Shown here piece by piece: positions 3,326 through 56,776 of a DNA stretch of 64,000 nt. Position numbers and translations under genes: made by a program. The notes below the pieces were generated by a model. It saw nothing but the letters and a program-made list of their open reading frames with translations. It was not told the origin of the DNA and ran no database searches. Positions within the stretch are counted from its first letter, which is position 1. Every line of letters starts with the position of its first letter. The stretch is from Haliotis rufescens (taxonomy: Eukaryota), in the NCBI RefSeq assembly GCF_023055435.1, contig NW_025964359.1, positions 62,001 through 126,000 of the forward strand, given 5' to 3'.

Positions 3326-3490
3326 ACCATCACGCCTTGCGCACGGCGACTTGCGGCGCCTAAGACGAATAGACAGACTATCCATGCGCCCGACTAAATT
3401 ATGAATGATGACATGGAATTCCATCCTCAGCTGAGATATCTTCGCATTCTTTTACAATAAATAAATAATGAACCATCCATACATGTTGAG

Positions 3491-20004: not shown

Positions 20005-20715
20005 GTAGGTATGTTAGATAAATAATAATAATACTAATGATAATAATAATGATAAAAAAATAATAATAATAATAATAATAATAAAAACAATAATAATGTA
20101 AAATGTGTGTAATAAAAGCGACAAACCCTAACCATATTCATAACAAAACTCTGCCAAAAGCAGAATCCACTGTACGATTTCGACTATATCATAAGCATGT
20201 GTTTATGAATTTCTATCAAATAGTGATGGCACCAGGTGTTCGCGAAAAGGTATCCGACCATATCATAATGTGGTGTGGTACATCAGGCACATTTTATCCA
20301 TGTCGGGAATCGAATCAAATCTTTCAGCGTGAGGAGCCAACGCATTATCCACTGTGTATAGAAATTATTAAAACGTCCTCAATGAAGTTTGAATGAAGGG
20401 AACAAATGGTTCAAAATTTTGAGTACGAGTGGGTTTTAACGTCAGGTCATTGTGTTTTCACATTCTAAATGTCTTTTTATATCTTAAGTATTTCAATTTA
20501 ACATGACTTAAGAACCTGATTATTATGTCGTGGGTATACTACATTACAATGGACATTCATGAAGTGAGTTGATGTTAATATCTTGTTTCTGTTTAAGCAA
20601 TTTGTATCACAAAAGATCAAACATGAAAGTCATGATACCAAACATGCCGAAGGGAAAGAAACTGTATTCCAATTTCCATTATCTTTACATATGATTAATA
20701 CTATTAATATTCCAG

Positions 20716-21957
20716 GTAATTCAGTACCTGACGGACAACTCAAGATTGAGAGTGTCGACAAAGCAGCATTCACAGCTGGATTTAACACGAACCTTTCTAA
20801 TGGCGACCATGATATTGATACAACCCAACCATTTAAGAACCCAGACTTGCGAAAGCTCAAAGATGATTCCATAACATCAAAGCTCGACCTAACAAATTCA
20901 ATCAAGGCGTTTGGAGAGGCAGAAAAACCAGCTAAACACATAAGTGATGAGAAGACAACCAATAACATTTCCTTTCATGATGGTCGTACGTCCTCTCCAA
21001 ATGGCAACCGAGATACGGCCACAGGGAAAGATGCTGATCAAACATCTTCTCCAAATGGTACACAAGATCGGGACACAGAAAAGAAAACTGATCACATGTC
21101 CTCTCCAAAAGGCAAACTAGAGGGGGACACGGGAAAAGAAGCTGATAACAGGTCCTCGGCAACTGACAAACCAGACAGTGACAAGGGAAAAGAAGCTGAT
21201 AACAGGTCCTCGCCCACTGACAAACCAGATAGTGACAAGAGAAAAGAAGCTGATAACAGGTACCCGCCCACTGACAAACCAGATAGTGACAAGAGTAAAG
21301 AAGCCGATAACAGGTCCCCGCCCACTGACAAACCAGATAGTGAAAAGGGAAAAGAATCTGATAACAGGTCCCCGCCCACTGACAAATCAGATAGTGAAAA
21401 GGGAAAAGAAGCTGACAACAGGTCCTCGTCCACTGACAAACCAGATAGTGACACAGGAAAGGAAGCTGATTACAAATTTTCTGCAATCGACAAACTAGAT
21501 AGGGACACGGGAAAGGAAGCTGATAACAGGTCCTCTCCAACTGACAAACCATATGGGGACGCCGGAAAGGGGGCTGATAACACATCCTCCTCAACTGACA
21601 AACTAAATAGGGACACAGGAAATAGAGCTGATCACACATCCTCTCCATCTGATCATCTCAAGCAACACCCAGGAACCAAAGATGATTTCATAAACCACAT
21701 GGGAAGGGTTGCTGATCAGATGACTTCAACAAATGGCAATGTCCAGGAAATACGTGGAAATACACCATCAATCATAAGAGCTAAAGATGAAGAATCGACA
21801 CAGAGAGGAGGTGTGCTATACATTCACGATGAGCCAACACAAGCTATGACTAAAAATAACAAACTAGTTTCGACTTTGAAGCCTGACATCAATGTGTCAT
21901 GCCCCCTGTGGCCACAAGAGGTCTTACGTAAACAGACTACGAGAGTGATGACTAAAG
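20716..21957 (+). CDS. Paralog B exon 2: Asp/Lys/Ser-rich tandem-repeat stalk
   Basis: Lies within open ORF 20583-21968; phase-1 acceptor TTCCAG|G at 20715 and donor AAAG|GTATAA; the end is homologous to paralog A. Confidence 0.75.
20990..21650 (+). repeat. Coding tandem repeat, 54-bp/18-aa unit (ADNRSSPTDKPDSDKGKE)
   Basis: About a dozen imperfect units visible in DNA and translation. Confidence 0.9.
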
Positions 21958-22392
21958 GTATAAACTAATGATTTACAAGAAGCTTAAGAGATTTTGCAGT
22001 TTACATCTGTACGTTCCATTGCAACAGTCAAAGTTGGTTCAAATCCCCTGATATTCAGCCAATAAGGTCACACATATTGATATTTTAAAAGTAATAAACT
22101 AAAAAGAATAATTGCGATTTTGTTGCGAATATCAGTTCTCCTACATACCTTTAGTGAATATCCGAGAGAGAGAAATTCGTAGTGTTGTTGCTTTAAGTGT
22201 TTGACAGGTCACCTTCTGTCTTAGCAATTTCGGCTGACCTGTCCCTCTTTGGGACTAATATGTCTGAGTAGGGTTCACATATCTATTGTGAGTTTGGTAT
22301 TCACATAATTTCTGTTTTTGCATTGATATGATTTCTATTTTCGTATATTGATATAATTTCATATTTATCTTTGGCTGCTCTGTTTATATACG

Positions 22393-31562: not shown

Positions 31563-31568
31563 GTAATC
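31563..31568 (+). repeat. Left 6-bp target-site duplication GTAATC
   Basis: Identical to 43475-43480. Confidence 0.95.
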
Positions 31569-32113
31569 AGTAGTAACGTACATCGGTAATGGACCACTCA
31601 GATTTCTGGGACCGCTCAGATTTCTGGGACCAAGATGGCGGCACATCCGTTTCCGGTCACGTGACCTGCGCAGTGCATGATGGGTACCTGCGCGCGCATG
31701 CAAGATGGCGTCGCATCCGTTTCCGGTGGCGCGCATGCAAGATGGCGTCGCATCCGTGTCCGGTGGCGCGCGCATGCAAGATGGCGTCGCATCCGTTTCC
31801 GGTGGCGTGCGCATGGAAAGAGGGCGTCGCTTCCGTTTCCGGGGAGGAGGAGGAGGGATAGGGGGAAAACCCGGAGGAGCGCCCGTACGAGGGGGAACAA
31901 GATCGACAGGGTTGTTGTTCTTGTGTTGTTCTAAAAATAGAAATAGACGTGGGGTGGTGGTGGGGGTGGTGAAGGGAGGGAGGGAGGGGAGGGAGGGAGG
32001 GGAGGGGAGGAGGGGTGGGTTCACGGTGTGGTGGGGGTGGGTGGGAGGGTCGTCAAAGCAAAGGAGGAAAAGCTGTCTTTCGGGAAAGATGGGTGGCCCT
32101 GAAAAGGGCCGTT
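31569..32113 (+). repeat. Left terminal inverted repeat (545 bp)
   Basis: Reverse complement of 42921-43474 apart from a few substitutions and ~9 nt of indels in the G-tract. Confidence 0.95.
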
Positions 32114-32115
32114 GG
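32090..32115 (-). terminator. Histone-type 3' stem-loop #1 (CCAAC GGCCCT TTTC AGGGCC ACCCA), followed by GAAAGACAG
   Basis: 6-bp stem, TTTC loop and ACCCA tail; ~110 nt downstream of the zinc-knuckle stop, same strand. Confidence 0.9.
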
Positions 32116-32224
32116 AAAACAAACTGGAAACTGGAAACTGGAAACGGCAGGAACACTGGAACACTGGAAAAACTGCAAACGATGGGAAACGGGTAAAAAC
32201 AGTGGGGGCAGCATGACCCATGCG

Positions 32225-32851
32225 TTAGTCACTTTGTTCAGAGGATCTCACTTCTCCATCCTCTACTTCCATCTCATCCTCGGACGGAAGGTGTCGTCGG
32301 CGCTTTGAAACGTGTTTTCGTGAGGGGGACCTGTTCCGTTTTCTTTTCTCTAGACGAGGTGTGATGCCTACCCGGAGTTGTGTGAGACATTCTTTTAGGT
32401 CGAGGACATCGGAATGCATGTCTTCGATGAGATGAAGCACTTGTGCCACGGGTGTCACGGGTGTCACGGGGGCCACGGGGGTCACGGTTGCCACGGATGC
32501 CACGGGTGTCGACGTGGACGGTGTTGCTAACGTTTTCTTTCGACTGGGTTCTGGACAATCTGCAGCGAAATGACCCAGGGCTCCACAGTTGTAACAGCGG
32601 TCCAGGCGATGGGGAGTCTTCTTTCGACGGGGTTCTGGGCAATCTGCAGCGAAATGACCCAGGGCTTCACAGTTGTAACAGGGGCCCTGGTACTGCTTCT
32701 CCTGCTTCTCCTGCTTCTCTTGACTGTTCAGCTTCGGACAGACATAGTGACGGTGACCTTGAGTGTGGCACTCGGTACATGTCACTTCAGGGCAGTACAG
32801 GTAACTGTGACTGTCGGTCTGGCACATCCTACAACTGTATCGAGCTGACAT
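32225..32851 (-). CDS. Four-CCHC zinc-knuckle protein (208 aa) with basic NLS and C-terminal EDGEV motif
   Basis: Four Cx2Cx4Hx4C motifs; start placed at CCATC-ATG-TCA (32851), downstream of the TATA box at 32901-32910 (alternative ATG 32863). The ORF-track extension to 33208 runs through promoter DNA. Confidence 0.85.
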   Translation of the reverse strand: MSARYSCRMCQTDSHSYLYCPEVTCTECHTQGHRHYVCPKLNSQEKQEKQEKQYQGPCYNCEALGHFAADCPEPRRKKTPHRLDRCYNCGALGHFAADCPEPSRKKTLATPSTSTPVASVATVTPVAPVTPVTPVAQVLHLIEDMHSDVLDLKECLTQLRVGITPRLEKRKRNRSPSRKHVSKRRRHLPSEDEMEVEDGEVRSSEQSD

Positions 32852-32900
32852 GATGGGTTTCATAGAATGCAGTGTGTGTGAGTGGCTTCGCTCTTGTTTT

Positions 32901-33165
32901 GTTTTTATAGGAGAGGCACTGACACCCTGCTTCCTGATTGGTTCCCCAGGCAGCGCCCCCGATTGGTTCGTTCCGGGGCCTGGCCCGCACCTCGGTTTTC
33001 CAAAACGGACCGACCCCTGTGTTTCTTTTCCATAGGAAATGGATTTTACCATGGGAGAGAAAGCACAACCCCGGTTCGGCCAATCAGAGCCCCGCCCGGT
33101 CCGAGCGCCGCTTCTGATTGGTCGACCACCCAGGCTTCGGATTGGTCCGATTTCGATCCGGTTTT
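32901..33165 (-). promoter_or_regulatory. Repeated multi-CCAAT + TATA promoter, copy A
   Basis: Several CCAAT/ATTGG boxes and CTATAAAA; homologous to copies B-D. Confidence 0.8.
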
Positions 33166-33400
33166 TATCGGGGTGTGCATTTCGATCCTGTTTTGTTTTT
33201 TTCTTCATCCTACAGACAACATAACACGACTATGCGTTTTTAACAAAAAATTTAATCCCCCTGATCACATGAACCAACACCACAAAACAAAAGTCACAGG
33301 ATGAGGGGGGACATCCCTGTGATTTTTGTGAACACGAGGGAGGGGTGACCGCGAGGGTAGGAACGTCTGACCACTTTGAAAAAAAAACAAAAAAACGTTG

Positions 33401-33931
33401 TCACTTGGGGTGAACAAGACACTCGACTCTTCGTTTCCGTGCTTCTTGGGACACCAAACGTCTGTATTTTTCGTTCACTTCTCCATCAGGACAAAACACA
33501 CACAAGTATTCGCAGGGGACTTTGGCATGCTTCAGATGTTCTTTCCAGGGTTGGTCTGTGGCTTCCCATTGGCGGAGTGCCACACCGCAGCAATAACAGG
33601 TCACACAGTCCCCTCGTCCTGGATAGAAATAGCCAGCCATGGCCATGTCATAAGGGGTCTGGGTCATCTGTTGAGGCCACGTTTTAAAAGACCTCAGACG
33701 TTCTTGAAATGAATCATAGTGGGGATGAGAAGGTTGACACAAGGTGTAAGAAGGAAAAGGTCTCTCCAGAACGTCACCGAGTCGACACCTGTCGTCCATC
33801 AAGAGTGTGTCGTCCATCAAGAGTGAACGTTTTCTCGCTTCTTGTTCTCTCGCCTTTTCAGACACCCACTCGGAATCGGTGACGACATCTCGGGAGGATG
33901 ACATGGCATTCATAGAACGTCTTTGCTCCAT
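33401..33931 (-). CDS. Single-BIR inhibitor-of-apoptosis-like protein 1 (176 aa)
   Basis: ERLRSFKTWP...AMAGYFY...VTCYCCG..LRQWE..DQPWKEH...PCEYL BIR signature; no RING; upstream duplicated CATAAAAG boxes (~33975, ~34027). Confidence 0.92.
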   Translation of the reverse strand: MEQRRSMNAMSSSRDVVTDSEWVSEKAREQEARKRSLLMDDTLLMDDRCRLGDVLERPFPSYTLCQPSHPHYDSFQERLRSFKTWPQQMTQTPYDMAMAGYFYPGRGDCVTCYCCGVALRQWEATDQPWKEHLKHAKVPCEYLCVFCPDGEVNEKYRRLVSQEARKRRVECLVHPK

Positions 33932-34771
33932 GATGACGGTGACTTCACTGAAAGAAGGTCTGAGGGTTCGCCTGCTTTTATGAAACTCTCCACCCTACAC
34001 CCTTCAACGGAAGGTCATGACTTTAGCTTTTATGAAACTCTCCACCTCCTCCATCTCCTCACGTGACGTCATCCTGTGTTTGGGTTGACGGACACACGGC
34101 ATGATCCATGACATGATCCATGACATGGATATGACATGGCACACGGGGAGGGGTGTGGGGATGGATGCGTCCTGGAATGACTGACACCAGGCAGCTGATC
34201 TTTCAAGCATGGCCTTTCTCTTTTATCTATTTTTATTTTAATGTTACACTTTGGTGTGCACTGACATGACAGAGGCACAGACAGACAGACGGACAAACAA
34301 CATCGACGACATCTCAACTCAACCTCTACCCTCGGTTCGGCACTCTATTGGAGTTGAGATCAATCAAGACACAAAGAGTCAGTTCAATCAATCACTGTTT
34401 AATCATGAAAAAACCAATCACAACCGGATACAATGGAAATACGAAAAGTCATTGGAGGAGGGAGTGCTTTGCATGTCCCTACAACCACCACAACAACAAC
34501 AACAACAATAACGCGACAACGTTTTCCTCTTCCATCTTCAAGCTCTTCCATCTTCAAGTCCCTAAGAGGTGGTCCTCCCTCAAACCTGTGAGAGGCCCAA
34601 CCGTTCAACACGTACAGTCTATGGCCTCCCTGAAACAGACATGACACATCACTTGATCACGGTTGCAGCTGGCGTGTTGACAAAGTTCTTCGAGTGAAGA
34701 GGAGGATCACCATAAGATGTGATCCTCAGATGCGATAGGCATGTCATCATGTGTCACTATGCTGTCATAGG

Positions 34772-35816
34772 TCAACATACTATGAGCTCCAGCTCACAGG
34801 CATGACACATCACTTGCCCGCTGTTGCAACTGATGTATCTTAACATGTTGTTGTGTCGGCAAACACGACATTCGCGTTGTAGGGGAGTGAGTTGAGCTTC
34901 TCCATAAGGATCCAGGTCAACGTTGTCATCATCATCATCGTCGCAAACCATGGGCGTACCTGTGGAGTAGACATGAACCTCTTCCGGGGATGCTGGTGAC
35001 CAAGAAGCCTCGAGCAGGGGAAGCGTGTCCAGATCCATGGAAGGGAGAGTGGCCACCTTGAGCGCTTCATGATCATCGAGGTCACCCGTCGCCATCGTCA
35101 CAGGGGCATTCGGTGAATAGATGGGCTCCCGAGGGGTTTGTTCCCACCACTGTTCTAGCACGGACTGGGCTGAACTGACATCAGGGGTCCTGTCAATCAT
35201 AAGGACAGAGTCCATTTAGGATAGGCATAGGTCATGCATATGAATCACATCAAGAATGACTGAGACAAAGAAGAGCAGGGTACTTACAGTTGTTCTTGAG
35301 GAGAGATCTTCAGAGATAATTTCTTCCGTGATCGTCTTTTTGCAGGCGTTGCAGGTGTGGCAGGTTTCAAAAAGGATGTCCCCCTCGTGTCGATGTCTGT
35401 TGTCGCCGCAGTCGTGGTTGCTGTGGCTGCTGTGGTGGTGGTGGTGGTGGGGACTGGCGCTGTGGGGGTGGGGGTGGGGTGGGGGTGGGGGGTGTTGCCG
35501 TTGCTGTGGGGGTCACCACGGCTGTGGGTTTGCGTGTCTTTTTCTTCTGGATCTTCTTGATCGTCTTCTTCGATGTGCCTTTCTCGGGTTCAGTCAGCTT
35601 CCTCATCTTTGAACGTATCTGGTCGCACATCAGGTTGTCGCCCTTCGCACGTAACTTGGCGTACGCGTCGTCGGTCTTCATCTTTAAACACAGCAAGTCG
35701 TACACTTCACCCCACAGTTCAGCAGTCATGTTACCGTTCCCCTCTCCACTGCTTCCTTGGCCACTCATGTCGCTTCGTGTCTTGTCATTCAACCGTTTCG
35801 ACATGTTGTTCGACAT
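34772..35816 (-). CDS. Predicted two-exon protein (~315 aa): basic/Thr-rich N-part, acidic MVCDDDDDD, C-terminal Cys4 zinc finger; one frameshift
   Basis: Intron 35287-35190 (GTAAGT...GACAG, 98 nt) joins KKLSLKISPQEQL to TPDVSSAQ in frame; one missing base in the G-run at ~35476-35479 links this frame to ORF 35367-35816. Confidence 0.65.
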
Positions 35817-36029
35817 GATGTTGTCCGGATGTTCTGTTCGTTGTTGTTGTTGTTGTTGTTTCTTTCCAAGTCTTCACGGAGGTACGTCAACACTTGATGG
35901 TACTCTCTCCAAACACGCGTTTCTTCCAGATAAAACGCCAACAACCAACACAACGTGAGGAACATCAATCAGAGGGGACGATGTTGTTGCTTGGTCCGTT
36001 CAGTGAAAAGTGATGACCGGAGAGCGTCG

Positions 36030-36265
36030 GTCGTATTAAAAGCCACGGAGGTCCTGCTTTCTGATTGGCCCGTTCCGATGTCTGACTTTCACCTTGGTTT
36101 TCCAAACTGGACCGACCCTTGTGTTTCTTTTCCATAGGGTTAGGCTTGTAGCGTGAGAGAGAAAGCACAACCTCGGTTCGACCAATCAGAGGCCACCCTC
36201 GCCCGAGCGCGGCCTCTGATTGGTCGATCATCCAGGCTTCGGATTGGTCCGATTTCGATCCGTTT
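36030..36265 (-). promoter_or_regulatory. Repeated multi-CCAAT promoter, copy B (more diverged, TTTTAATA box)
   Basis: Homologous to copies A, C and D; upstream of ATG 35816. Confidence 0.75.
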
Positions 36266-36318
36266 TTTTCTGTAGGGATCCATGTCGATTCAGTTTCGAT
36301 CCGCTGTCATGAAAAATT

Positions 36319-39300
36319 TTAGTGAAAGTCGTCTCTGTACCCAAAGGGGAGCGTGTCTACAGGTAGCCCTGTGATGTCGTCGTAGACGAGACGTCGCTTG
36401 TCGTACACGGTACGATAGTCTTTTCGGGTGGGTCGGGTCACGAGTGCGTTTTCGTGCCGAGGGCCTTTTCGAATGATCTGATGAGGGTAATCCAAACTGA
36501 TTTTCTCCTCCTCTTTCCCAGGCCGTTGTCCCAGTATCAGTCCTTTCATGGTGTCAAAGTTGAGATGGCGTTGGTTTCGGTAATTCAAAGTGAACCCTCG
36601 CACTTTGCAGGTCGTGCGCGTTCCATCGGGTCTGGGGTTCATTAACTCGTAGCCATAGTTTTTGGGGCCTCCCGACACAAACGTCTTGATGGTGTTTCCG
36701 TCCAGTTCATCCGTAAACTCACCCAACGAATGACCCAGCTCTGGATTCGCGTCGTGGGGTCGATGAATGTAAATGACGCTGTCCGTGTCAAAGTACAACA
36801 CCCTGTGGTCCACCAGGGCAAGGGTCTCGTACAGCTTGAGACGTGCTTGGGCGGTGACCCAAGCAGCGATGGCGACGTTGAAATGAGAATGAGGGGTTTG
36901 GAATTCTTTCTGCTTGGTATAGGTCACTTCCACCATGTGTTCGTTGACAACGACCACATCCTCGATGGTATTGCGTTCATCCCTCCACAAGGCAAAGTAC
37001 TGTACAGTATCGTTCATATACACGTTCTGACTGTAGTCTACCCGTTGCCCAAACTTGCCCCAGAGCGAATTCAGTTGCATCTTGGCAATCGTGCGACGTC
37101 CTGGATTTTTTTCGATGCGGTCCTTGTCCAACCCAATGCCTTCTTTGTCGTAGATCTCCTGGATGTACGCGTTGTGATCCGTACATCCTTCGGGGTATCC
37201 GCTGGCTTCGAGCTTCTCCTTGAAATGTCGATCGATGTAAGTGTCAAAGAGTCCCACTTGCTGGGTGTCGGGGTCATGCTGTGCAAAGGTGTCAAAATGC
37301 CAAACGTCGTAGATCTGAAGCACCCGGTAGTCATACTTCTTCACGGCTTCCTGGAGTTCTACGGTGGCGTACGTCCCCACCCATGACCTCTCTTCGTCCG
37401 TGTGCTCGCAGGGGGAGTCTGACCGGGTATCGGCACACGTGCGGCACAAAGGACAGAGCAGTTTGCCACCCGATCTGTAAGGCAGTAGCGGATGGTAAAG
37501 TCGTTTCGGGGGTAGGACACGGCATTGGATCAGGCCTTTCAGTTCAAACAACGTGTCCACAGGGGGTTGATGGAGAAGGGTCGGGTGTCCCGTGGGAAAC
37601 GCTCCGGTCTTACAAATGTAGGGATAAAGGGAACAAATATCGATGTACTTGATGGTTTCACCTTCTTGGGCTTCGTAGCATAATCGCGTCGCATTGGTGC
37701 GTCCTCCATAGAAGGCATCGCGAGGGTTGAGCGGCCCGGGGACGTGGATACAGCGGGGTCCCTGCAAGAAAGCATGCAGTGCGGAGTCCTCCCGTTGCAT
37801 TTTCGTAAACTCGTGCTCCCACAGGGTGACGATCCGTTTCACCTCAGGGTGTTGACTCAAGAGACTCAAGCGGTAGTGGGTGTCGGTGTAACGGGCTCCC
37901 AACGACGAGCCCAGGACGGGATGCGGTTCTCCACGTCGGGTCTTGTGACAGACCTGGCACCCATGCCAGAAACAGCCCAGGAATTCGTAGACGGTGCCTG
38001 TCGCTGGATCGTAGCCATCCACGGTGTACCGATGTTGACCCCCTCCACACGTGAACTCTTTTTCACCGCCATTCCTAGCGTGCTGGAGGTGCAGATGGGG
38101 GTGCGTTTCCATCAGATAGTGGAGCCAGTGCATACAGGCCTGGGAATAGTTTCTCTTGGGTTGGTAGCCTTGAGATGGGAGAATGGCGATGGTATTGGGT
38201 TTCAGGTCGTGTTTTCGGAAGGATTTGATGGTGAACGCTGCAGCTGTCATCACTTCCACAAAGGGATCCATGCCCACCGAGTGGATGGCGTTCTGTCGGA
38301 AGTCGGCGCATCCCCGTCTCAAAATGTCCACATCGCTTTGGCAGTAGGTTAAAAGTTCTCCTTGTAAGTCGAACAAGGCTCCTTCTTGCACTTTTTGGGT
38401 ATGCCACTGGAGGAAGGCTGTGCGTTCCGCGGGAGACATGCCATCGGGATCGTACGTGACGGCTGGTGGATAGGGACCTCTGTAGGTTTGGTTGACTCTC
38501 GTATTAAAAAAGTGTGGAAAGTACCCTTTCTTCATTTCTTTCAGCCCAAAGCTCTTGGGAAAGGCTTTCAGGGGGTAAGGGATGAAATTTAAGCTGTCTT
38601 CGAAACATAACCGTCCCAGGGTCATTTGCAAAATTTGTTGGTCATGGCGAATCTTGGTGGGGAGTGTCACCAGGAGGGGGGACAGACCCTTCAGGACTAA
38701 GTGTAAATCATAGGATCGTGCATTATGGGCCATCACATAAATGCGATCCTCCTTCGTGACTGTATGGCAGGAGGTGTTCTTGTTCTTTGGCTTCTTTGTT
38801 TTCTCCACTTCCATGACCTCTTCCCCCTCTTCCCCCTCTTCCATCTCCTCCCCCTCTTCCCCCAACTCCTCCCCCTCCTGCTGGGGTGATGCCTGTCGTT
38901 TGGAAGTGTGCTTTCTTGAGGGGGTGTCATCCCGTTTTCTTTTTTTCCCCAGGTGAGCTGTCGTCCCCTTGCGTGTGCTGCCCTCCTCTTCCTCTGGGTG
39001 GGGCTTCTTCTTGGGTATTTCAGACAACGTGGTCAACCACACACACACATCATGTCGCGTGGTGGGGCCTCGAAACACGATCTCACGGCTGGGACCATAC
39101 CCTTCTTCTCTCCATGGACAGTGTTCGCACAAGTTCTTGCTCACTTCACTGATGCATCGTCCACATCCTAGTTGCACCACGCACAAATTTGGAATGTGTT
39201 CCCCCGTGTCTTGCATGCATTCAAAATCGTAGAAGGCGTATTGAACATGGTCTCGTAGGGGATGTTGTTCCTCTTCCCCCTCCTCCTCCTTCTCCGCTTC

Positions 39301-39795
39301 CTCCCCCTCCTCCCCCTCCTCCCCTTCCTCCTCCTCGTTTTCTTCACGGAGAGGCGTCATGTAACAGCGATGATCTGGGGTCATGGGTTCTCGGCACACA
39401 AAGCAGGGATGTTCTTCATCGAAGCACGCGTGGTGAGCCATGGGGGTCTCCAAGACGCGGACCAACTGAAAACAGTTCGGGCACCTGTGAATCGATTGAC
39501 AGGCGCTGGGTTTTCCCTCTGACGGTGACTGGAGATGCCGGGTGTAACACATTGGATTGGGGAACCAACCTTGACATGTCAAGCAAGGGATCCCGTGCTC
39601 TTCCTGGGGTCCGCAATAACTAGAGTAGAAGCAGCGGTAACAGCGGTATTCCTTGGTGCAGGGATGTTTTTCGGGATGGTCGTAACGTTTGTCACAGCGT
39701 TTGCAGTAATGGTTAGAGCCATAAAAAGCGGGCATGGAAGTGATGATCATGATGGTAGAGATGCAGCACGGTGGCGTGGGGTGGAGTCTCATCAC
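36319..39795 (-). CDS. polB: Protein-primed family B DNA polymerase, main part (Cys-rich region, exonuclease, Vsr-like insertion, polymerase)
   Basis: ExoI FYDFEC, ExoII AHNARSYD, ExoIII YCQSDV, YGGRT, motif A DICSLYP, motif B KMQLNSLWGKF, motif C YFDTDS, GPKNY; VDGYD..VYEFLGCFWHGC insertion. Confidence 0.95.
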   Translation of the reverse strand: MMRLHPTPPCCISTIMIITSMPAFYGSNHYCKRCDKRYDHPEKHPCTKEYRCYRCFYSSYCGPQEEHGIPCLTCQGWFPNPMCYTRHLQSPSEGKPSACQSIHRCPNCFQLVRVLETPMAHHACFDEEHPCFVCREPMTPDHRCYMTPLREENEEEEGEEGEEGEEAEKEEEGEEEQHPLRDHVQYAFYDFECMQDTGEHIPNLCVVQLGCGRCISEVSKNLCEHCPWREEGYGPSREIVFRGPTTRHDVCVWLTTLSEIPKKKPHPEEEEGSTRKGTTAHLGKKRKRDDTPSRKHTSKRQASPQQEGEELGEEGEEMEEGEEGEEVMEVEKTKKPKNKNTSCHTVTKEDRIYVMAHNARSYDLHLVLKGLSPLLVTLPTKIRHDQQILQMTLGRLCFEDSLNFIPYPLKAFPKSFGLKEMKKGYFPHFFNTRVNQTYRGPYPPAVTYDPDGMSPAERTAFLQWHTQKVQEGALFDLQGELLTYCQSDVDILRRGCADFRQNAIHSVGMDPFVEVMTAAAFTIKSFRKHDLKPNTIAILPSQGYQPKRNYSQACMHWLHYLMETHPHLHLQHARNGGEKEFTCGGGQHRYTVDGYDPATGTVYEFLGCFWHGCQVCHKTRRGEPHPVLGSSLGARYTDTHYRLSLLSQHPEVKRIVTLWEHEFTKMQREDSALHAFLQGPRCIHVPGPLNPRDAFYGGRTNATRLCYEAQEGETIKYIDICSLYPYICKTGAFPTGHPTLLHQPPVDTLFELKGLIQCRVLPPKRLYHPLLPYRSGGKLLCPLCRTCADTRSDSPCEHTDEERSWVGTYATVELQEAVKKYDYRVLQIYDVWHFDTFAQHDPDTQQVGLFDTYIDRHFKEKLEASGYPEGCTDHNAYIQEIYDKEGIGLDKDRIEKNPGRRTIAKMQLNSLWGKFGQRVDYSQNVYMNDTVQYFALWRDERNTIEDVVVVNEHMVEVTYTKQKEFQTPHSHFNVAIAAWVTAQARLKLYETLALVDHRVLYFDTDSVIYIHRPHDANPELGHSLGEFTDELDGNTIKTFVSGGPKNYGYELMNPRPDGTRTTCKVRGFTLNYRNQRHLNFDTMKGLILGQRPGKEEEKISLDYPHQIIRKGPRHENALVTRPTRKDYRTVYDKRRLVYDDITGLPVDTLPFGYRDDFH

Positions 39796-40573
39796 ACTTG
39801 TACAACAGTCTCTGACCCACCTCTTGACTGTAGACTTTCAGTTGATAATGCAGACGGGTCAAGGCTCGTCCCACGCGTGCGAGGTCGTCCAGACCCCGAC
39901 AGGGGCCTTCGGGCAGGCCAAGGCTTCGAAACAAGGCCCGTGCCCGTATGCCTTGAACGTCGACGCGATCCGTTCTCGTCAGTCTCTTTCGCTGGGCGGT
40001 CCATGCTGGGGTCAGAGGGTGAGGCTTGTGGGCATAATGCTGTGCCACCACCAGGGCCCGTCCCAAACAGGATTGATCTTCGTTCTTGATCCGTACGATG
40101 CACTTTTTGCGTGTTAAAAAAGCTTCGAGTCCAATCACGTTTTTCAGCCGGGGAGCACCACTGCCCGATCCTACCCTGTCGGGATCTGCGACGTGTACTA
40201 AGGTCACATCCATGGTGGCATCGATGTTCAGGTCTTTGTTGGACTGTTGGACTTTTTCCACGGCTTGCAAAATAGTTAGCCCATGGAGATCTTCAAAACG
40301 TCGAAAGGGTATCCGTATGGGTGTGTTCAAAGCGGGATGATCGATACCTAGACCAATACGATCTCCCTTCTGACCTGATATCTGTTCATAAAAGTCATCG
40401 ATCACCCTGTCAAATAAAGCTGGCAGTTCCATGGGGACGCGTTCCGGTGGTACGGTGTTCAAGTAGTCTGGGTTGAAAGTCAAACAATAGGTATGATTAG
40501 CAGTTCTTAACCGTCTGGAGCGGGTGATATCTTTCCTCTCCAAACGATAGGGCGTACTTTGGTTGCTCGTCAT
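39713..40573 (-). CDS. N-terminal part of pPolB (terminal-protein-like region + OTU-like protease), frameshifted from the main ORF
   Basis: IKNEDQSCLGRALVVA (Cys) and LHLYHHDHHF (His) resemble the vOTU catalytic motifs of Polinton pPolB; overlaps the downstream ORF at the expected junction. Confidence 0.8.
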   Translation of the reverse strand: MTSNQSTPYRLERKDITRSRRLRTANHTYCLTFNPDYLNTVPPERVPMELPALFDRVIDDFYEQISGQKGDRIGLGIDHPALNTPIRIPFRRFEDLHGLTILQAVEKVQQSNKDLNIDATMDVTLVHVADPDRVGSGSGAPRLKNVIGLEAFLTRKKCIVRIKNEDQSCLGRALVVAQHYAHKPHPLTPAWTAQRKRLTRTDRVDVQGIRARALFRSLGLPEGPCRGLDDLARVGRALTRLHYQLKVYSQEVGQRLLYKCDETPPHATVLHLYHHDHHFHARFLWL

Positions 40574-40654
40574 GATAACGATGTGTATCTGATGAACGTC
40601 TGTACTCTAAGAGGTGCTGAACGTCTGAGGGATGGACAACCCTTCCCCAAAACA

Positions 40655-40940
40655 GGATCGAAATCGGACCAATCCGAAGCCTGGATGGCCGACCAATCAG
40701 AAGACAGCACCGACCAATCAGAAGACAGCACCCGAACCGAGTTGTGCTTTCTCTCCCATGGTAAAATCCATTTCCTATGGAAAAGAAACACAAGGGTCGG
40801 GTCGTTTTAGAAAACCGAGGTGCGGACCAGGCCCCGGAACGAACCAATCGGTGCGCTGCGTTTTGGACCAACCAGGAAGCAGTGAGTTTCGATCCGGTTC
40901 TTCCCCTATAAAACAAGCGTGGATTCGAGTGGGTCAGTGT
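40655..40940 (+). promoter_or_regulatory. Repeated multi-CCAAT + TATA + Inr promoter, copy C (between divergent pPolB and BIR2)
   Basis: Four CCAAT boxes, TATAAAA at 40907-40913, TCAGT initiator at 40934-40938. Confidence 0.85.
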
Positions 40941-40962
40941 ATGTTACATAAAATCATCTAGA

Positions 40963-41421
40963 ATGGCTGAAACAAAGAAGAGTGGTACGACGACGACAAC
41001 GCGTGGCGAAGATGCGGTGATGGATAGTGCAGAACCTCGTGAATGCTGGAGTAAGAGTCATGCCGAGGAGGCGGTGTCACTGCTCAGTCAAACACCATCG
41101 CACTATTATCTACGCTTTGAAAGAAGGCTCGCTTCGTTTGAGACGTGGCCCACGCAAATGTATCAGACTGCTGAAGAGATGGCCCATGCGGGCTTTGTCT
41201 ACACTCAGGGTGCCGATGGGGTGTGCTGTTTCCAATGTGGGGTGCGGCTGAGACAATGGGCACCCCACGACGATCCTTGGGCGGCACATCACAAGTGGTC
41301 CCCAGACTGCGACTACCTCAAGCTAACCGGGTTGGTGAAACACCAGAAGAAGCTACAACTGCACTATCTCTGCGAAGAGAAACAGAGGTACACGAATGAC
41401 GTAGCACGGCCGGCTGCCTAG
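40963..41421 (+). CDS. Single-BIR inhibitor-of-apoptosis-like protein 2 (152 aa)
   Basis: RRLASFETWP...MAHAGFVY...CFQC-x16-H-x6-C canonical BIR; no RING. Confidence 0.93.
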   Translation: MAETKKSGTTTTTRGEDAVMDSAEPRECWSKSHAEEAVSLLSQTPSHYYLRFERRLASFETWPTQMYQTAEEMAHAGFVYTQGADGVCCFQCGVRLRQWAPHDDPWAAHHKWSPDCDYLKLTGLVKHQKKLQLHYLCEEKQRYTNDVARPAA

Positions 41422-41534
41422 GTTTCCCGTGTCCTGCGTACCCGTTCAAGTTCCCGTTCAAGTTCCTGTTCAAATGTTTTTCTTTTCTTGGTTGGACCCA
41501 CAAGTGGACAGCAGCAGAAAAGTTTTTCTTCCCC

Positions 41535-41560
41535 AAAACGGCCCTTTTCAGGGCCACCCA
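41535..41560 (+). terminator. Histone-type 3' stem-loop #2 (AAAAC GGCCCT TTTC AGGGCC ACCCA), followed by AAAAGACAA
   Basis: Perfect 16-nt hairpin at 41540-41555, ~118 nt after the BIR2 stop; outside the TIRs. Confidence 0.92.
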
Positions 41561-42235
41561 TCTCACCCAAAAGACAACTTTCTTCCTTTGCTTTGCTAAA
41601 CCCTCTGCCCCTCCAAAACAAAGAACCCACATCCTCCCCCTAGACCTCTTGGAGGCACACGTCTAAAAATACAATACATAGATATAAATAGATATTAATA
41701 GAGTTAGATCCATAGATCCATAGAGACACGTAGTACACCGCGTCAAACATCACGTGTGCATGAACACACGCGTCACAGTACGCCTGTCGACCTACACGAG
41801 TGTCAACACCTCGGTATCCTTAAATAATAATAATAATTTGAAAACACACACGTACAGGGTACGACGTTTGCATGGCAACACACAGTACAACCATGACGTT
41901 CACATCGCGACACGAAGTGCATGACGCGTGCAAACGTCACGCAGGTGTATCGATTTTTCTCTATTCATCTCACTACGACACGACTCGATACACACACACA
42001 CAGGACACCACGTTTTGACTGACCACACGTTATTCTATGCATCAACGTCAACGTCTGTTTGAAGACATACACACACACACACGCACACATGACATTCCGA
42101 TTGGCATGGGAGTGACACCACGTACATCGCGTAGGCATTCCCACGTTCATGTCTACCTATGAAGGTCCACCTTCCTTTAGCATTCAGACGACCGTCTACC
42201 TCAAAAAATATCAAGGCTACCCAAGAAGAAAAAAA

Positions 42236-42520
42236 ACGGATCGAAATCGGACCAATCCGAAGCCTGGATGGTCGACCAATCAGAAGCGGCGCTCGGACCA
42301 GACGGGGCTCTGATTGGTCGAACCGGGGTTGTGCTTTCTCTCCCATGGTAAAATCCATTTCCTCTGGAAAAGAAACACAGGGGTCGGTCCGTTTTGGAAA
42401 ACCGAGGTGCAGGCCAGGCCCCGGAACGAACCAATCGGAGCTGCGGGCTGGCGAACCAACCGGGAGGCAGGGTGTCAGTGTCTCTCCTATAAAACAAGCG
42501 TGGATTCGAGTGGGTCAGTG
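42236..42520 (+). promoter_or_regulatory. Repeated multi-CCAAT + TATA + Inr promoter, copy D
   Basis: Four CCAAT/ATTGG boxes, TATAAAA at 42488-42494, TCAGT at 42515-42519. Confidence 0.85.
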
Positions 42521-42553
42521 TCACTTGTAAAAATTGATTGAAAAGAAAGCATC

Positions 42554-42913
42554 ATGATGAGTATCAACAACAACAGCAACAACAACAACAGCACCAGCAA
42601 CAACTACCCCCTGAAAGAAAACTGGGATTTAGAGATTGCTACAGTGGCACAACCTTTGCCCGGGTGTAAAGAAACATTACCATCACCACCACCACCATGG
42701 TCTCCAGCGTGGCAATGTGCCCGGTGCCATGGGGGCCTGCCCGTCTATGCCCTTGGTACAAGGGTACGGGATGGGACTTTCGAGTGCGTCTACTGTAAGA
42801 CCATCCTCAAGGACACCTACGTGCGTCGGTTAACGCACACCAGTAGGTGTCCTGTGAGGAGACAGATGAAAGTCCACCCGTGCCTTTGTACCATGGGATG
42901 CACAACCATGTGA
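42554..42913 (+). CDS. Small Cys-rich zinc-ribbon-like protein (119 aa), function unknown
   Basis: CARC-x19-CVYC; sits exactly between promoter copy D and stem-loop #3; GCATC-ATG start context. Confidence 0.75.
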   Translation: MMSINNNSNNNNSTSNNYPLKENWDLEIATVAQPLPGCKETLPSPPPPWSPAWQCARCHGGLPVYALGTRVRDGTFECVYCKTILKDTYVRRLTHTSRCPVRRQMKVHPCLCTMGCTTM

Positions 42914-42918
42914 GCATC

Positions 42919-42944
42919 AAAACGGCCCTTTTCAGGGCCACCCA
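42919..42944 (+). terminator. Histone-type 3' stem-loop #3 (AAAAC GGCCCT TTTC AGGGCC ACCCA), followed by GAAAGACAG
   Basis: Hairpin at 42924-42939, 10 nt after the stop at 42913; forms the inner edge of the right TIR. Confidence 0.9.
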
Positions 42945-43474
42945 TCTCTCCCGAAAGACAGCTTTTCCTCCTTTGCTTTGACGAGCCTCCCACCCCCACC
43001 CCCCACCACACCGTGAACCCACCCCTCCTCCCCTCCCCTCCCCCTCCCTCCCTCCCCTCCCTCCCTCCCTTCACCACCCCCACCACCACCCCACGTCTAT
43101 TTCTATTTTTAGAACAACACAAGAACAACAACCCTGTCGATCTTGTTCCCCCTCGTACGGGCGCTTCTCCGGGTTTTCCCCCTATCCCTCCTCCTCCTCC
43201 CCGGAAACGGAAGCGACGCCCTCTTTCCATGCGCACGCCACCGGACACGGATGCGACGCCATCTTGCATGCGCGCGCCACCGGACACGGATGCGACGCCA
43301 TCTTGCATGCGCGCCACCGGAAACGGATGCGACGCCATCTTGCATGCGCGCGCAGGTACCCATCATGCACTGCGCAGGTCACGTGACCGGAAACGGATGT
43401 GCCGCCATCTTGGTCCCAGAAATCTGAGCGGTCCCAGAAATCTGAGTGGTCCATTACCGATGTACGTTACTACT
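42921..43474 (-). repeat. Right terminal inverted repeat (554 bp)
   Basis: Reverse complement of 31569-32113; ends ...TTACTACT. Confidence 0.95.
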
Positions 43475-43480
43475 GTAATC
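43475..43480 (+). repeat. Right 6-bp target-site duplication GTAATC
   Basis: Identical to 31563-31568. Confidence 0.95.
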
Positions 43481-48050: not shown

Positions 48051-48310
48051 TGTTTGTGTGGCTGCTTGTACTAGTCCGGACTGATGCCGATTTATAGTGC
48101 TAGCTCACGGAGATACCATGCCACAGTTTAACATGAATACCCCACTCAGACACAGTATACTGACTCCGAGCTGACCAGTCCTTGTTTTAACCCCTTAATG
48201 CCGAGCGCCAGACAGGGTAACAACAAGTACCATCTTCACGCGGCCGGGGATGGAACCCCGAACCTTCCGCTCTCCGGGCGGACGCTCTACCACTAGGCCA
48301 CGGAGGCGGT
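47945..48310 (-). mobile_element. tRNA-derived SINE with (GTGAG)n tail and internal (GT)n
   Basis: A/B-box-like head at the right; GATATTCTTCTGGT duplicated on both sides. Confidence 0.75.
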
Positions 48311-51992: not shown

Positions 51993-54900
51993 TTACAGTA
52001 ACTCGTGCTTTTCCACCACAGCTCCACATGAACACTGAACAGTTTCTTTATCCATCTGTATCTCTGTTTTCTTTAAGCAAACCAAGCATTGGTGTTTCGT
52101 TAGTTCCTGAACATTATAAGCTTCATTACCATGAAACGAGAACGCAAGGTAAAATTGAACACGTTGTCCAGCAAATCTAGTTCCAACCAAACCAGCTCTA
52201 ATTGGAATGAAAAATACCTTAACTGGCACGGAATTCTGTCCGAGGTCTAGGTCTATGTATCCAGACAACCGGTTGCTGTTGGGGTGAGCAATCGTTCCCT
52301 TGCAGACCAAAAGGCTGTGTGGAGTACTCTGTATGTTCCTTCCTTCAATCTGAGCAGATAAACGGCTTCGGGGTATTAGACGCTTAATGCCAGAGTTGTT
52401 CTTTCCAAGCCATTCCTGGGGATATCTTGGTTTTGAAACAGATTTGATGAATTTGTCCATATCGTCCTTTAGCATTTGGGCTTGAACGAGACTCTCACTA
52501 TTTCCTTTGCACTCTGCTGATCCAAAGCCAACAAGGCTCAACACGACAAAGAGGTAGAATGTTGATGTTGGGCTGTGAAGTGTTTCATACCAGTATCTGA
52601 TCTTGCTGAGAACATCTTGTTCTGAATACGTGCTGGGAAAGTGTGGGTGTCGTATGGCAACAAGCCATTCTTTAAAGTCTGACTCAAGCTGCCTCTTGCT
52701 GAAGTCCCCCATCACTGATGCGTCTTTGAAGTTCTCTTCATAGAGATTGATGAACTCAATTATATCTGCTTCTGGAATATTACTGATCTCAAACACACTG
52801 TGGTGACCTTTTCTGGTGTATTTGAGTTTGTTTGCAGCTATCAGCAGTCTCCTTGATGTCACTGACATATTGTCAAGTCTGTGAATGTCAAACATATTTC
52901 TTTCAAACAGCTGATCGTACCAAAGGACGGCTGAATGAAATGTTTGATCAAGATTTCCAGGGTCAATGAGACTGTAACATTCAAGAATCATATCTTCGAT
53001 ATCAGTAATGCTGTCCATGATAAACTCTGCTACTGGTTCGCCATGACGACCATGTTTGGTTAGGAAGCCTGATACTCCACCGTTAGTGTAGTTTCTGTTG
53101 ACAAAATCACATACTTGCAGGCGAACGCGGATTTCACTGGAATATCCATAACACTCTTCATAACCTGAAGGTGCATTTTGCCTGCAATGTGTAAAATAGC
53201 TACAAGCTGTATCTGCATCTCTCACGAGTTCTTCAATTCGAAGGTTAAATTCTCCTTCAGTTGTCTCAGTTTCTGGTTTGCTACCTTGGCTTCTTCCCGT
53301 GTACTTTCCAACACGACGTTGATATATGGTACCATACATGTGGTATATGTGCATCAATGTCAGCTTCCTCCATTCCTCTGTTACAGAGGTAAGTGGACCA
53401 TCGTTCCATTTCTTGCACAGATCAAGGGCATCTTCAAAACATCTCTCTGCCTTGTCCTCTTCTTCTTGTCGGCAGTGTGCATAGAAACGTCCAAGATGAG
53501 CAAGGAAATTTGGATCATCGGGAAAAGAAGATGATAGTCTCCTAAGAACTTCTAGTCTTCCTGTGAATGGTGAATTCATGTCAATGTCACATATCAGTTG
53601 TGAAAAAAGAGGTCTTTTCTTAATTTGAACTTCATTTTCTCCAACATCTTTGTTATCTCTGTAAATGAATGTCCTCGTAAGAATTTTGATTATATTGTGA
53701 GCTGTCAAAGATGACCTGGTCCTCCTTGAACTAAACATGGAAATAAACTCAAGGCAAAACTCCTTTAGATTGTGTTTAGCCTTCTTGCTTAGGGTTTGAA
53801 GCCTTGTGTCTTGTTTGGTGCTTGACCGATTCAAAACTTGTTCCAAAATTTCCTTTGCAAGGTAGTAATTGCTGATCCGTATGTTCTTTTCCCGACCATC
53901 GGATGCATCTTCAACAACAAACTCCATGATTGGGTATGGAAAGTCATCTATACATACATCAAAGTTTGACTGTTTTCCCAAAAGTCGAGCAAACACTTGA
54001 CATGGCATGGACGTCTGACCATAGAAATATACAAGTGACAGGTAACCGAGGATCTTCTGCCATGACAAAAGGTGCCTTGTGGGGTTTTCCTCCAACCGAA
54101 GATACCCTTTCACATATGTTTCTATTCCTCTGAACTCGTGATGATACACTGCCATACCGAATTCATACATCACATGATGCCTCTTTTTCTGTTGAACATC
54201 TTTGCACATTTTGGATAGTACCTTTTTCCTATTATCTTCTTGACATCTTTCAAGGAATTTGAAAGAAAGGATTTTGGCTTCGTCTTCTGTTACTTCTCCT
54301 CTTAACCAAAATTTGTTGTCTTTTGGACGTTGAAGTGGCTCTTTTATTGCATAAGGATAACGTTTTGCATAGATGACAATGATGCATCCTGATTTCAATT
54401 TCTTCATAATTTGCTTCACACGAGGTTCATCTTCCCCGTCAATCAAAAGAACAACTGGGAGGCCAGAAACATCGTACAGATATTGTATTTTTGCCAAAAC
54501 TTCCTCAATCAATATGCCAGGCCTCTGTTTAAGTTGACAACATGGACATATCTTTCTCAATTCCCACAATATTCGTTGCGCTAGTGTTGTTCCTCCAGCA
54601 CCGGGGGCATGAAATATTGTGACAGTAGCACTTCTAAATTCCTTAATGAGTTTCTGCTCTACATGTTCAATGATATATTTCATGATGTCTCTTTCAACAT
54701 CAACGTGTGTTGTTCCAAAGGCGTATCTGGCACACCAGTGAAGTGACCCCCCCTTGAAGAAACAATCCACTTCTTTTGTCAGTTCTTCAACATCAGCTTC
54801 CCCTTTAGTGTACGGACTGGACAAGTACAGAACCACTAAGTCCTCACGTAGCCAAGCTGCATCTTTGTCTGTTACATCAGCATGCATATGACTTTCTTGC

Positions 54901-56776
54901 TTTGGAAGAGAGTAATCCATTTCTCTTTGTTTCGAAATCTCTTTCAGCATGTTCCCCACAGATAAACAAAGACTTTCCAAATCAATCTTCAGCTGAACTA
55001 AGTTGGTATTGTAGTCAGATTCAAGAAGCTGTAAAACTGACTTTCCAACGCTTGAATTTAGTTCTTGTAATAAGCAAACAATAATCTTTGGTTGAACATG
55101 GAAGTGGTCATTTAACTTGCACAGGAATTTGTAGACGCACTGGGCTTGTATTTCATTATCTGGCCATAGTACAATTAATCTAAGCACTGTATAATCTTCT
55201 GAAAATCTTGCCAGGTTAAGACAAGTGCTGTTCAGATTTCCTTTGACAAGCTGCAACCATCCATTTGGGTTGTGTGAAGTTTGGGTGTCTGGTATTTCAC
55301 AAAGTCCACGAAGACATATCCATTGGGTGCCACTTTCTGTAATACCCTGTGGGGAATCTTTCCATGTCGACACATGTAGGTACCTTTTCCTCTTTATAAC
55401 ATCCTCCAAACATGAAAGCAAACCTGAGTGTCTACTAGACTCCTCAAAGTCGTACACAGCTAGCCATGACACGAGTGCCAAATTATCCACATGTCTTACT
55501 GATTCTGGTAAACTGCCTGTAATCAATACAAAATGTCCCTTTTTGAAGTAATCTACTGCAGAACAAAAATCAGCTGTTGTCACTCCTCTCTTGATTGTTG
55601 CTGAGTATTCTTCATCAGGATACTCAAAATCCCCTTTATCTATTACTTGTCTGGTTGTTTCTGTATTTTCCTCCACAGACATCTGACCAGTTCCACCAAA
55701 CCACTGATAAATCTGGCCTGTCAGAAAATCCTGTGGCAGACTGAGTCGATTATGTCTCCCAGACCTGACCCACAACTGACCTGCTGTAAGAGTCAGCTGG
55801 TTACTATCTGTGAAGTCTTTAGTAACAACTGAAGGCACGCCTTGGCCATAGCTGCTTTGAACATCAATAATACCAATTACTTTGTCTTGGTAAACTACTT
55901 CTTTGTACTTGAAATTAGGCATCATCGAAAAATGATCTTTGTTAAAATAAGCCTGATAAAAATCATCACTTGATCGAACCCGAACTCCTACCACAGAATG
56001 TGGTTTTGTCTGATTCAAGCACACTCCAATCACAACAGATGATGTGTGTCTTGAGGGGGTATTCCATAGAGATACTATATCCTGCATAAAGATTGCTTGT
56101 CCATCCATGTATATTGATTCATCTGGGTAAAACAGAAGTACATCACTTTCATCCTTCCTCAACAAATCTCGAACCATAAACCTCTCTGAATTGTATATTT
56201 CCTCTGTGCCAGAAGATGTTGACTCCTCTTTAGAAATAGATTGAGAAGTTTCTACACTGTGGACTTTCAGAACCGATTTTTTTTCACTGCGTTTTGATTT
56301 TTGTTGCTGCCATGGCTCCGAGTTCAAGTTTTCTTCATCATCGTCATTTTCTGTTGCATATCCAGAAGCTTCACCAAGTTTCTGAACCTCAACTTTCTCT
56401 TCTGTGCACTCATTTCTTGCTTCTTTTAATGGCAAGGTCGATTTCGGATCTGAATGAACACTTGCTGTACATGTCACACTTTTTCTTACTTCCTTTGAGT
56501 CCTCAGATTTCTTCCTGTCTCTCCATTTCAACCTGATTGTTTGTTTTCCTTTTGTAGAGTACATGTCATAATATTCACTATTAGTTTCAATAAACTTTCG
56601 AAGAGGTGCTCCATATGCATCTTTAAATGACTTGACAGTGGAACAATGTCTTCTATATTGCTTTGTGAAACGCTCTTCAACAATTTTCATAGACATCTCT
56701 ATCGCTTTTTCGGAACATGTTGGGTTTATTATGCTATTTACCATACCAACAAACACGTCATTCTTGCTTATTCCTC
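51993..56776 (-). CDS. SAMD9/SAMD9L-like STAND NTPase, main exon (AlbA/Schlafen-like, SIR2-like, P-loop, TPR, OB fold, C-terminal Cys motif)
   Basis: IFHAPGAGGTTLAQRILWELR (SAMD9-type Walker A), PVVLLIDGED (Walker B), WLAVYDFE..S..SGL, NFLAHLGRFY and RVQFYLAFSFHG.EAYNV; acceptor TTTTCAG| at 56777. Confidence 0.9.

Follow-up and report, generated by a model that had tools for sequence, protein, structure and literature searches.

A 64-kb stretch of the genome of the abalone Haliotis rufescens (contig NW_025964359.1, positions 62,001 to 126,000, in the following called the window) contains an 11.9-kb mobile element derived from a Polinton (Maverick), in which three genes that code for no histone end in the hairpin and the histone downstream element (HDE), rich in purines, of replication-dependent histone mRNAs. 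With a probability of roughly 70% we consider this pair to be a working histone-type mRNA 3'-end signal which animal Polintons have co-opted for small accessory genes. As far as the sequence goes the signal is a known one and the class of gene bearing it is new, and the feature is real and recurrent: a complete cis-signal occurs in the correct place and orientation, matched to the host, both behind unrelated genes and across several lineages of Polintons. The cut in histone pre-mRNA falls 4-5 nt past the hairpin, between the site where SLBP, the stem-loop binding protein, attaches and the HDE paired with U7 (PMC10730174), and this end is described as specific to histone mRNAs, all other cellular mRNAs ending in poly(A) (10.1101/2025.02.23.639735).

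Histone-type 3'-end signals in the window

A pattern search of the 64-kb window yielded three exact copies of the 16-mer GGCCCTTTTCAGGGCC (stems in Table 1), with a chance expectation of 0.04 copies on average and no set of three or more in 100 shuffles. Each copy has a 6-bp stem and a 4-nt loop flanked by AAC on the 5' and ACCCA on the 3' side, and the HDE, (G/A)AAAGACA, begins 8 nt past the ACCCA. All three hairpins passed the Rfam model RF00032 (Histone3), which has a gathering score of 34 bits, and were part of the minimum-energy fold in their 101-nt contexts; as a whole these contexts folded no more stably than shuffles (z -0.3 to -1.3). The hairpins lie on the coding strand, with stop-to-stem distances of 114 nt for a zinc-knuckle gene, 118 nt for the inhibitor of apoptosis (IAP)-like gene BIR2 and 10 nt for a 119-residue open reading frame (ORF). 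Neither AATAAA nor ATTAAA occurs within 300 nt after the three stops. The positions, flanks, strands and HDEs of the hairpins agree with an original prediction, made by a model from the letters alone, and are confirmed. Of its gene labels, zinc knuckle and BIR2 were confirmed by Pfam, while the third, zinc ribbon, was not, the protein having no Pfam or Atlas family; none of the three ORFs codes for a histone. The prediction had also missed that two of its hairpins are copies of each other. The terminal inverted repeats (TIRs) reach inward exactly to the hairpin 5' AAC at both ends of the element, and the hairpins at 32095 and 42924 are therefore one sequence duplicated with the TIR, though each sits behind a different gene.

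The cassette consists of a CCAAT/TATA promoter, a short leader, an intronless non-histone ORF, the hairpin and the HDE, which is the layout of a histone gene with another ORF. As read from the DNA, the genes thus share with metazoan replication-dependent histone genes the stem and loop, both flanks, the HDE spacing, the lack of introns, the short untranslated regions (UTRs), the CCAAT and TATA motifs and, in the window, 3' regions free of poly(A) hexamers. They differ in what they encode (zinc knuckle, BIR, orphan and elsewhere a Mos-like kinase) and in lying in a mobile element outside the histone clusters. A CCAAT-rich module is present four times in the window element, with 4-5 CCAAT per module. 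In the three modules preceding hairpin genes a TATA stands 43-66 nt before the ATG, and the fourth, M2, has none; we take these words to be the promoter motifs of those names. A 12-mer of module M1 (32921-32932) is also found upstream of host H1 genes and in 0 of 300 shuffles. It is a lead only, as this pair was the only one of 12 comparisons between modules and host histone upstream regions to beat shuffles.

Comparison with the 3' ends of host histone genes gave the same hairpin type and a similar HDE. The H1 genes of the abalone end in GGCCCTTTTCAGGGCC and its H3, H4 and H2A genes in GGTCCTTTTCAGGACC, each followed by the HDE at 13-14 nt, and the element module is a copy of none of the host histone 3' ends read. 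The RNA-binding domain of SLBP is encoded by the host (PF15247, two exon matches over the cut-off).

The H1 genes of the host stand in a 3 kb tandem array of their own (L004-L030, C445:49.27-49.67 Mb; L065-L070), apart from the 4.1 kb core-histone repeats. By eye, this array also holds a likely 5S rRNA gene.

The signal in other abalone elements

Genome-wide, the 19-mer of hairpin plus ACC has 294 copies and its control 0. The first 30 loci listed all share at least 115 nt with the window element, and no histone was seen among the upstream ORFs printed for them. The first 100 hairpins listed fall on contigs C1-C90. On these contigs the exact 19-mer lies at most 10.5 kb from a gene for protein-primed DNA polymerase B (pPolB) in 19 of 25 loci, or 19 of 23 at 78% identity or more. 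An AAAG(A/G) word stands 14 nt past the stem in 31 of 35 distinct family sites, close to the 13-14 nt of the host histone genes; these sites had been chosen by their hairpin, the invariance of which is no evidence here. One listed family copy shows a stem change on both sides that leads to the host core-histone form.

A second type of hairpin was found in a full Polinton, C68, which has integrase, PC4, capsid-like and BIR genes. There GGTTCC-TTAC-GGAACC, followed by ACCAA and a host-like HDE, stands 36 nt past the BIR stop and reaches 26 bits in Rfam (E 0.003, under the cut-off). Compared with the window hairpin three stem pairs differ on both sides, in a compensatory manner. With one mismatch allowed this type has 25 copies in the genome against 0 of the control, and variation is confined to the fourth loop base.

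The signal in Polintons probably from other animals

Related pPolB genes were collected by an alignment-based scan, which gave 86 loci (80 metagenome loci, the best 80 of 491, and 6 viral loci). A covariance model, R1, built from 14 hairpins and reported at E <0.001, detected 11 sites in 8 of these 86 loci. Five of the 11 belong to the training set; outside it are L118, L122, L138 and L133:4918 as well as L114 and L116, two loci that nearly repeat L113. Used by itself, the Rfam model placed two L133 sites at its cut-off and two more below, with L122 also under it. Fifteen of the metagenome loci extend 5 kb or more upstream of the polymerase core, and the hairpin is present in 7 of them. A quick tree built from 73 pPolB rows places the loci that bear it in two separate groups. 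L133 is a full Polinton with ATPase-like, protease-like and capsid-like ORFs and four hairpins in an internal accessory cluster. One of them lies 20 nt past the stop of a kinase gene (2998-3705, minus strand), the nearest named relatives of which are coral Mos proteins. The viral collection yielded no relative in a single-protein scan and 0 matches to the coral-type hairpin pattern. One phage-like match to a hairpin pattern there had neither an HDE nor an ORF context and was taken as chance.

For the Mos-like kinase of L133 dozens of relatives of 230-260 residues exist, and the same contig has three tRNA genes in its accessory region.

A sense-strand ORF of at least 100 residues ends 10-118 nt before 11 of 13 distinct hairpins (L113, L114 and L116 counted once) as compared with 6.8% of random positions (binomial 9e-12, the sites not being independent). 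In 15 distinct element hairpins 98.9% of the stem cells are paired, three of the six pairs change on both sides, and G-U pairs are tolerated.

Another finding was that the signal varies with the host. Prokaryotic assemblies, when scanned, gave contigs of contaminating animal DNA that carry histone clusters. Two of these, L184 and L190, have the histone hairpins GGCTCT-TTTA-GGAGCC or GGCTCC-TTTA-GGAGCC, with the same downstream words as the metagenome Polintons. The H1 of L190 clusters with a Porites lobata protein and the H2A of L184 with Nematostella, Xenia, Oculina and a sea-urchin protein. The 30 nt after the stem were scored against six histone sets: all four abalone element modules scored best against abalone histones (one in a tie), and eight of nine coral-type modules against those of L184 and L190. 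The metagenome Polintons with hairpins thus probably come from corals, as their sequence suggests.

A purely DNA-level role of the palindrome, as a cruciform or as a replication or integration signal in the TIR with an incidental likeness to histone genes, would suit the two copies within TIRs. It deserves almost no credence: some copies are internal, the hairpin takes the strand of the ORF before it, the stem accepts G-U pairs, and both the HDE and the unpaired flanks match the host histone genes, which largely refutes it. Identification of the signal as histone-type, with which the original prediction had begun, is strengthened by the Rfam matches, by its presence in other Polinton lineages, where the hairpin is conserved, by the host matching, by the compensatory stem changes and by the SLBP domain of the host. 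Host matching and placement argue in addition for its use.

Possible function and alternatives

By analogy with the histone pathway SLBP would bind the element hairpin, U7 snRNA would pair with the HDE, and CPSF73 would cut about 5 nt after the stem, so that the mRNA ends without poly(A). Expression of the IAP, zinc-finger and kinase genes might then be confined to S-phase cells, oocytes or embryos, for which we see about even odds; such cells would offer a DNA element the chance to replicate and to pass to offspring. With a hairpin borne by the TIR, both outward-facing terminal genes would automatically have a 3' end.

Several observations weigh against a working signal of this kind. The transcript ends at the hairpins are predicted, and the RNA data gave none that could be used. 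These data comprise 4 of 24 listed runs, namely three contig sets which also cover intergenic DNA and one small-RNA run with 12 reads placed. Two contigs, one ending 2 nt beyond the cut predicted at 42944 and the other in an A-run past 42989, were not used as evidence for ends because contigs cannot show ends and a genomic A-tract is present within 140 nt at 3 of 37 family sites. No host U7 gene was found by an Rfam search (best match 27.5 bits, under the cut-off) or by a motif search (11 matches, 11 in the control). In the 20 kb read of C323, another full Polinton, the genes for a zinc knuckle and BIR stand without a hairpin, so the signal is dispensable. In 78 of the 86 related loci R1 has no match; most of these are short contigs, in which absence means little. 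The covariation counts come from few lineages. The C-G top pair and the UUAY loop of the C68 hairpin depart from what we take to be the canonical SLBP site, and an AATAAA lies 48 nt past its stem. At most coral-type sites an AATAAA overlaps the HDE, and several have a second one near +25; the overlapping hexamer is also present in a coral-type H2A gene and is thus not by itself a poly(A) signal. Within the abalone family, finally, the HDE region (0.77-0.82 identity to the window copy) is no better kept than the upstream UTR (0.68-0.93) in a regional comparison with 17 sites assigned and 13 unassigned.

The hexamers after the C68 and several coral-type hairpins would agree with a use of the signal above all for compact termination or insulation, or as one of two alternative ends like those of the bimorphic H2A.X (PMC3188798), and not for cell-cycle timing. 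It would stop outward transcription before the TIR and the host flank and limit double-stranded RNA from the inverted repeats. Two of the three window hairpins form the inner TIR edge, and several C68-type copies face outward in pairs with capsid genes between them, at either end of full Polintons. We regard this explanation as unlikely, since the BIR2 hairpin is internal, the four hairpins of L133 lie in an internal cluster, and the promoters are histone-like too; the hairpins in the TIRs suggest that termination at the element ends is an added or alternative purpose of the signal.

The missing excess of HDE conservation would also be expected if a captured 3' fragment of a histone gene had merely been spread by TIR duplication and gene conversion, with the pathway unused. 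Similarity between paralogous hairpin sites starts abruptly at the AAC and is about 70 nt long, like a duplicated block, and a recent capture would give host matching as well. Such a vestigial passenger is quite improbable in view of the sense-strand placement just behind stops in 11 of 13 cases, the compensated stem of the 25-copy family and the recurrence in two separate pPolB groups. The module of the abalone element is copied from none of the host histone 3' ends read, and none of these elements showed a histone ORF.

The CCAAT-rich modules of the window element recall human LTR12, which U7 represses via HDE-like motifs near NF-Y CCAAT sites (10.1101/2023.08.25.554787). HERV1/LTR12, with its CCAAT boxes and motifs complementary to U7, is likewise a mobile element; it differs in being a retroelement, in the transcriptional nature of the repression and in having no SLBP hairpin in the accessible account. 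That the element RNA is a decoy titrating SLBP and U7 from histone mRNAs, or that U7 represses the element through the HDE, appears very improbable: hairpin and HDE stand at histone spacing 3' of ORFs, distant from the CCAAT boxes, and an element is not expected to retain a pure repression site.

A working 3'-end signal remains the preferred explanation. Its widest form is put forward tentatively, at somewhat less than even odds: Polintons of at least two phyla would make non-histone, non-polyadenylated, SLBP-bound mRNAs via the host U7 pathway, keep a hairpin and HDE matched to the host, and thereby time an IAP and a Mos-like kinase to S phase or the germ line, the abalone element being divided into one half with the polymerase and one with capsid and integrase, the two having their TIRs in common.

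Organization of the window element and its sister

The window element spans 31569-43474, with the termini AGTAGT...ACTACT and a 6-bp target-site duplication (TSD). Left and right TIR have 540 identical positions over 545 and 554 nt, respectively. Polintons are defined by TIRs and a TSD of 5-8 bp (10.1101/2023.08.22.554363). Besides both of these the element has a protein-primed polymerase; integrase and capsid, the further marks, are missing from it, and queries from full Polintons for integrase, ATPase, protease and the major and minor capsid proteins gave no tblastn match. Its genes are pPolB, two BIR genes, the zinc knuckle and three orphans (Table 1). In this copy pPolB is split over two overlapping frames (36319-39792 and 39713-40573), and some other family copies have a single frame of more than 1400 codons. 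The nearest pPolB and BIR proteins are those of Haliotis rufescens and H. cracherodii, BIR2 clusters with Haliotis proteins, and a coral adintovirus PolB matched the window pPolB at 42%. The term 'Oncoid', used in Table 1, denotes a gene class from section 3.2 of PMC8502044.

Table 1. Positions of the element's features in the window
Feature	Position	Strand	Remarks
Left TSD	31563..31568		GTAATC, 6 bp
Left TIR	31569..32113		starts AGTAGT; inner edge is the hairpin 5' flank
HDE of hairpin 1	32070..32081	-	purine-rich; compared with host histone genes
Stem-loop 1	32090..32113, stem 32095-32110	-	RF00032 38.2 bits; AAC and ACCCA flanks; predicted cut after 32090
Zinc-knuckle ORF	32225..32866	-	intronless; 213 aa from TATA-proximal ATG; Pfam PF00098 (zf-CCHC) E 1.3e-13
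Promoter-like module M1	32903..33169	-	5 CCAAT, TATA
BIR1 ORF	33401..33931	-	Pfam PF00653; no hairpin; ATTAAA 144 nt past stop
147-aa ORF	34772..35215	-	acidic tract, paired CxxC; no hairpin; 'Oncoid'-like by eye only
149-aa ORF	35367..35816	-	basic, proline-rich; no hairpin
Promoter-like module M2	36060..36269	-	CCAAT boxes, no TATA
pPolB	36319..40573	-	PF03175 E 7.7e-35; no hairpin
Promoter-like module M3	40649..40917	+	TATA; upstream of BIR2, divergent from pPolB
BIR2 (IAP-like) ORF	40963..41421	+	intronless, 152 aa; PF00653 E 7.1e-23
Stem-loop 2	41537..41560, stem 41540-41555	+	RF00032 36.8 bits; only copy outside TIRs; predicted cut after 41560
HDE of hairpin 2	41569..41580	+	
Promoter-like module M4	42228..42494	+	TATA
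119-aa ORF	42554..42913	+	intronless; paired CxxC; no known family; 148 matches in genome
Right TIR	42921..43474		ends ACTACT
Stem-loop 3	42921..42944, stem 42924-42939	+	RF00032 35.3 bits; inner edge of right TIR; predicted cut after 42944
HDE of hairpin 3	42953..42964	+	
Right TSD	43475..43480		GTAATC, 6 bp

The genes missing here are found on a sister element (L036 and L199; C1, about 46151500-46161900) of 10.35 kb, which has a 6-bp TSD and TIRs 75-78% identical to those of the window element. It matches ATPase, protease, both the minor and the major capsid protein and integrase, the last lying in two frames in that copy, and no pPolB was found in it. Its left end bears a canonical hairpin behind a different 86-residue ORF, and that copy lacks part of the hairpin at the right end. 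On C1-C90 the canonical 19-mer lies within 12 kb of 10 of 22 capsid matches (44-55% identity), none of these 10 having a pPolB match within 15 kb. Conversely, 21 pPolB loci were checked for a neighbouring capsid match, which was present at the full C68 element and at no other. These neighbour searches scored 78 of 489 and 96 of 305 candidates, and one partner copy was read. The simplest reading of these sequences is that window and sister element are two complementary halves with common ends, a split Polinton, and that the window element probably relies on a sister with related TIRs for integrase and capsid. The original prediction of a virus-like element is supported as regards the Polinton origin and overlooked both the missing integrase and capsid and the complementary sister.

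The TIRs contain CpG-rich tandem units (31630-31830, 43210-43415), the words of which resemble YY1, NRF1 and ETS sites. Outside the element, the window has an intronless ORF of 1583 residues at 51993-56744 on the minus strand with weak Schlafen AlbA_2 and TPR matches. It also has two related regions, 9636-11439 and 20691-21968, with 51-54 nt tandem repeats coding low-complexity proteins, which are a duplicated host locus. A weak tRNA match at 48245-48300 (minus strand) is probably the head of a tRNA-derived repeat.

Further hairpin-bearing loci

In the abalone genome, an intronless SET-domain ORF (PF00856; L064:7039-7941, plus strand) has CCAAT, TATA and a histone hairpin at 7956, 14 nt past its stop. 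No Polinton genes were seen in the 10 kb read around it and no relative was obtained at E 0.001. A tandem array of 12 hairpin-bearing units (L158, C46:12174400-12206600) holds broken relatives of this ORF in the 4 kb read. L048:1501-1540 is a rearranged family copy in which the hairpin runs straight into promoter-module sequence and the HDE is lost.

An animal-like contig in a Thiodiazotropha assembly (L186:102-1801) has histone-type hairpins at three sites, of which two follow non-histone ORFs, as well as a four-knuckle zf-CCHC gene, and no polymerase in its 5.4 kb; it is possibly a third host lineage. A suspected homology between an ORF of this contig and the 119-residue ORF of the window was not supported, nor was one between L113 and L192. 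The latter locus (88-451) has a hairpin behind an orphan ORF of 99 residues and the same HDE as the histone genes L176 and L185 of its assembly. At L175:7439-8045 a histone-type hairpin stands behind an ORF of 178 residues that adjoins a reverse transcriptase (RVT_1); the signal may thus also be borne by a retroelement.

Relation to known systems and significance

With animal Polintons and the adintoviruses among them the window element shares AGT termini, TIRs, a 6-bp TSD, pPolB and IAP-like accessory genes; it differs in its 11.9 kb lacking integrase, ATPase, protease and capsid, which are on the sister element. Section 3.2 of PMC8502044 reports IAP and 'Oncoid' genes in adintoviruses; the term 'stem-loop' is absent from that section, and the accessible text does not mention histone-type 3' signals. 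Histone-mRNA factors are used in trans by viruses: human cytomegalovirus needs SLBP (PMC9169081), the SARS-CoV-2 frameshift RNA binds SLBP (PMC12166091), and influenza uses ERI1 (PMC7544206). They differ from the elements discussed here in that none is described in these accessible accounts as encoding the canonical hairpin and HDE at its own gene 3' ends. SLBP and processing factors are reported absent from large viral genomes (10.64898/2026.10.14.759114), and the accessible part of that work mentions neither Polintons and transposons nor non-histone genes. Bidnaviruses, segmented viruses with pPolB (10.1101/2024.03.25.586562), likewise have polymerase and virion genes on separate DNAs. They differ in having a parvovirus-type capsid and replicase and, as far as described there, no Polinton integrase; the split proposed here derives from integrated copies only. 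No literature on histone stem-loops in Polintons or Mavericks was found, with supplements, Repbase notes and most subscription journals outside the coverage of the search.

If the proposed function is true, animal Polintons would be the first natural non-histone clients of the SLBP/U7 pathway, breaking the histone-only rule. Such clients would open a standing question to test, namely whether hairpin and HDE are sufficient away from histone clusters or depend in addition on a promoter of the histone type and on the histone locus body. To our knowledge almost nothing is known about the expression of Polinton genes. For these genes a histone-type 3' end would provide predicted transcript ends, a dependence on host factors and a likely cell-cycle window, and it predicts that poly(A) RNA-seq misses the transcripts. 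Host-matched variants of the signal could moreover help to assign hosts to Polinton contigs from metagenomes.

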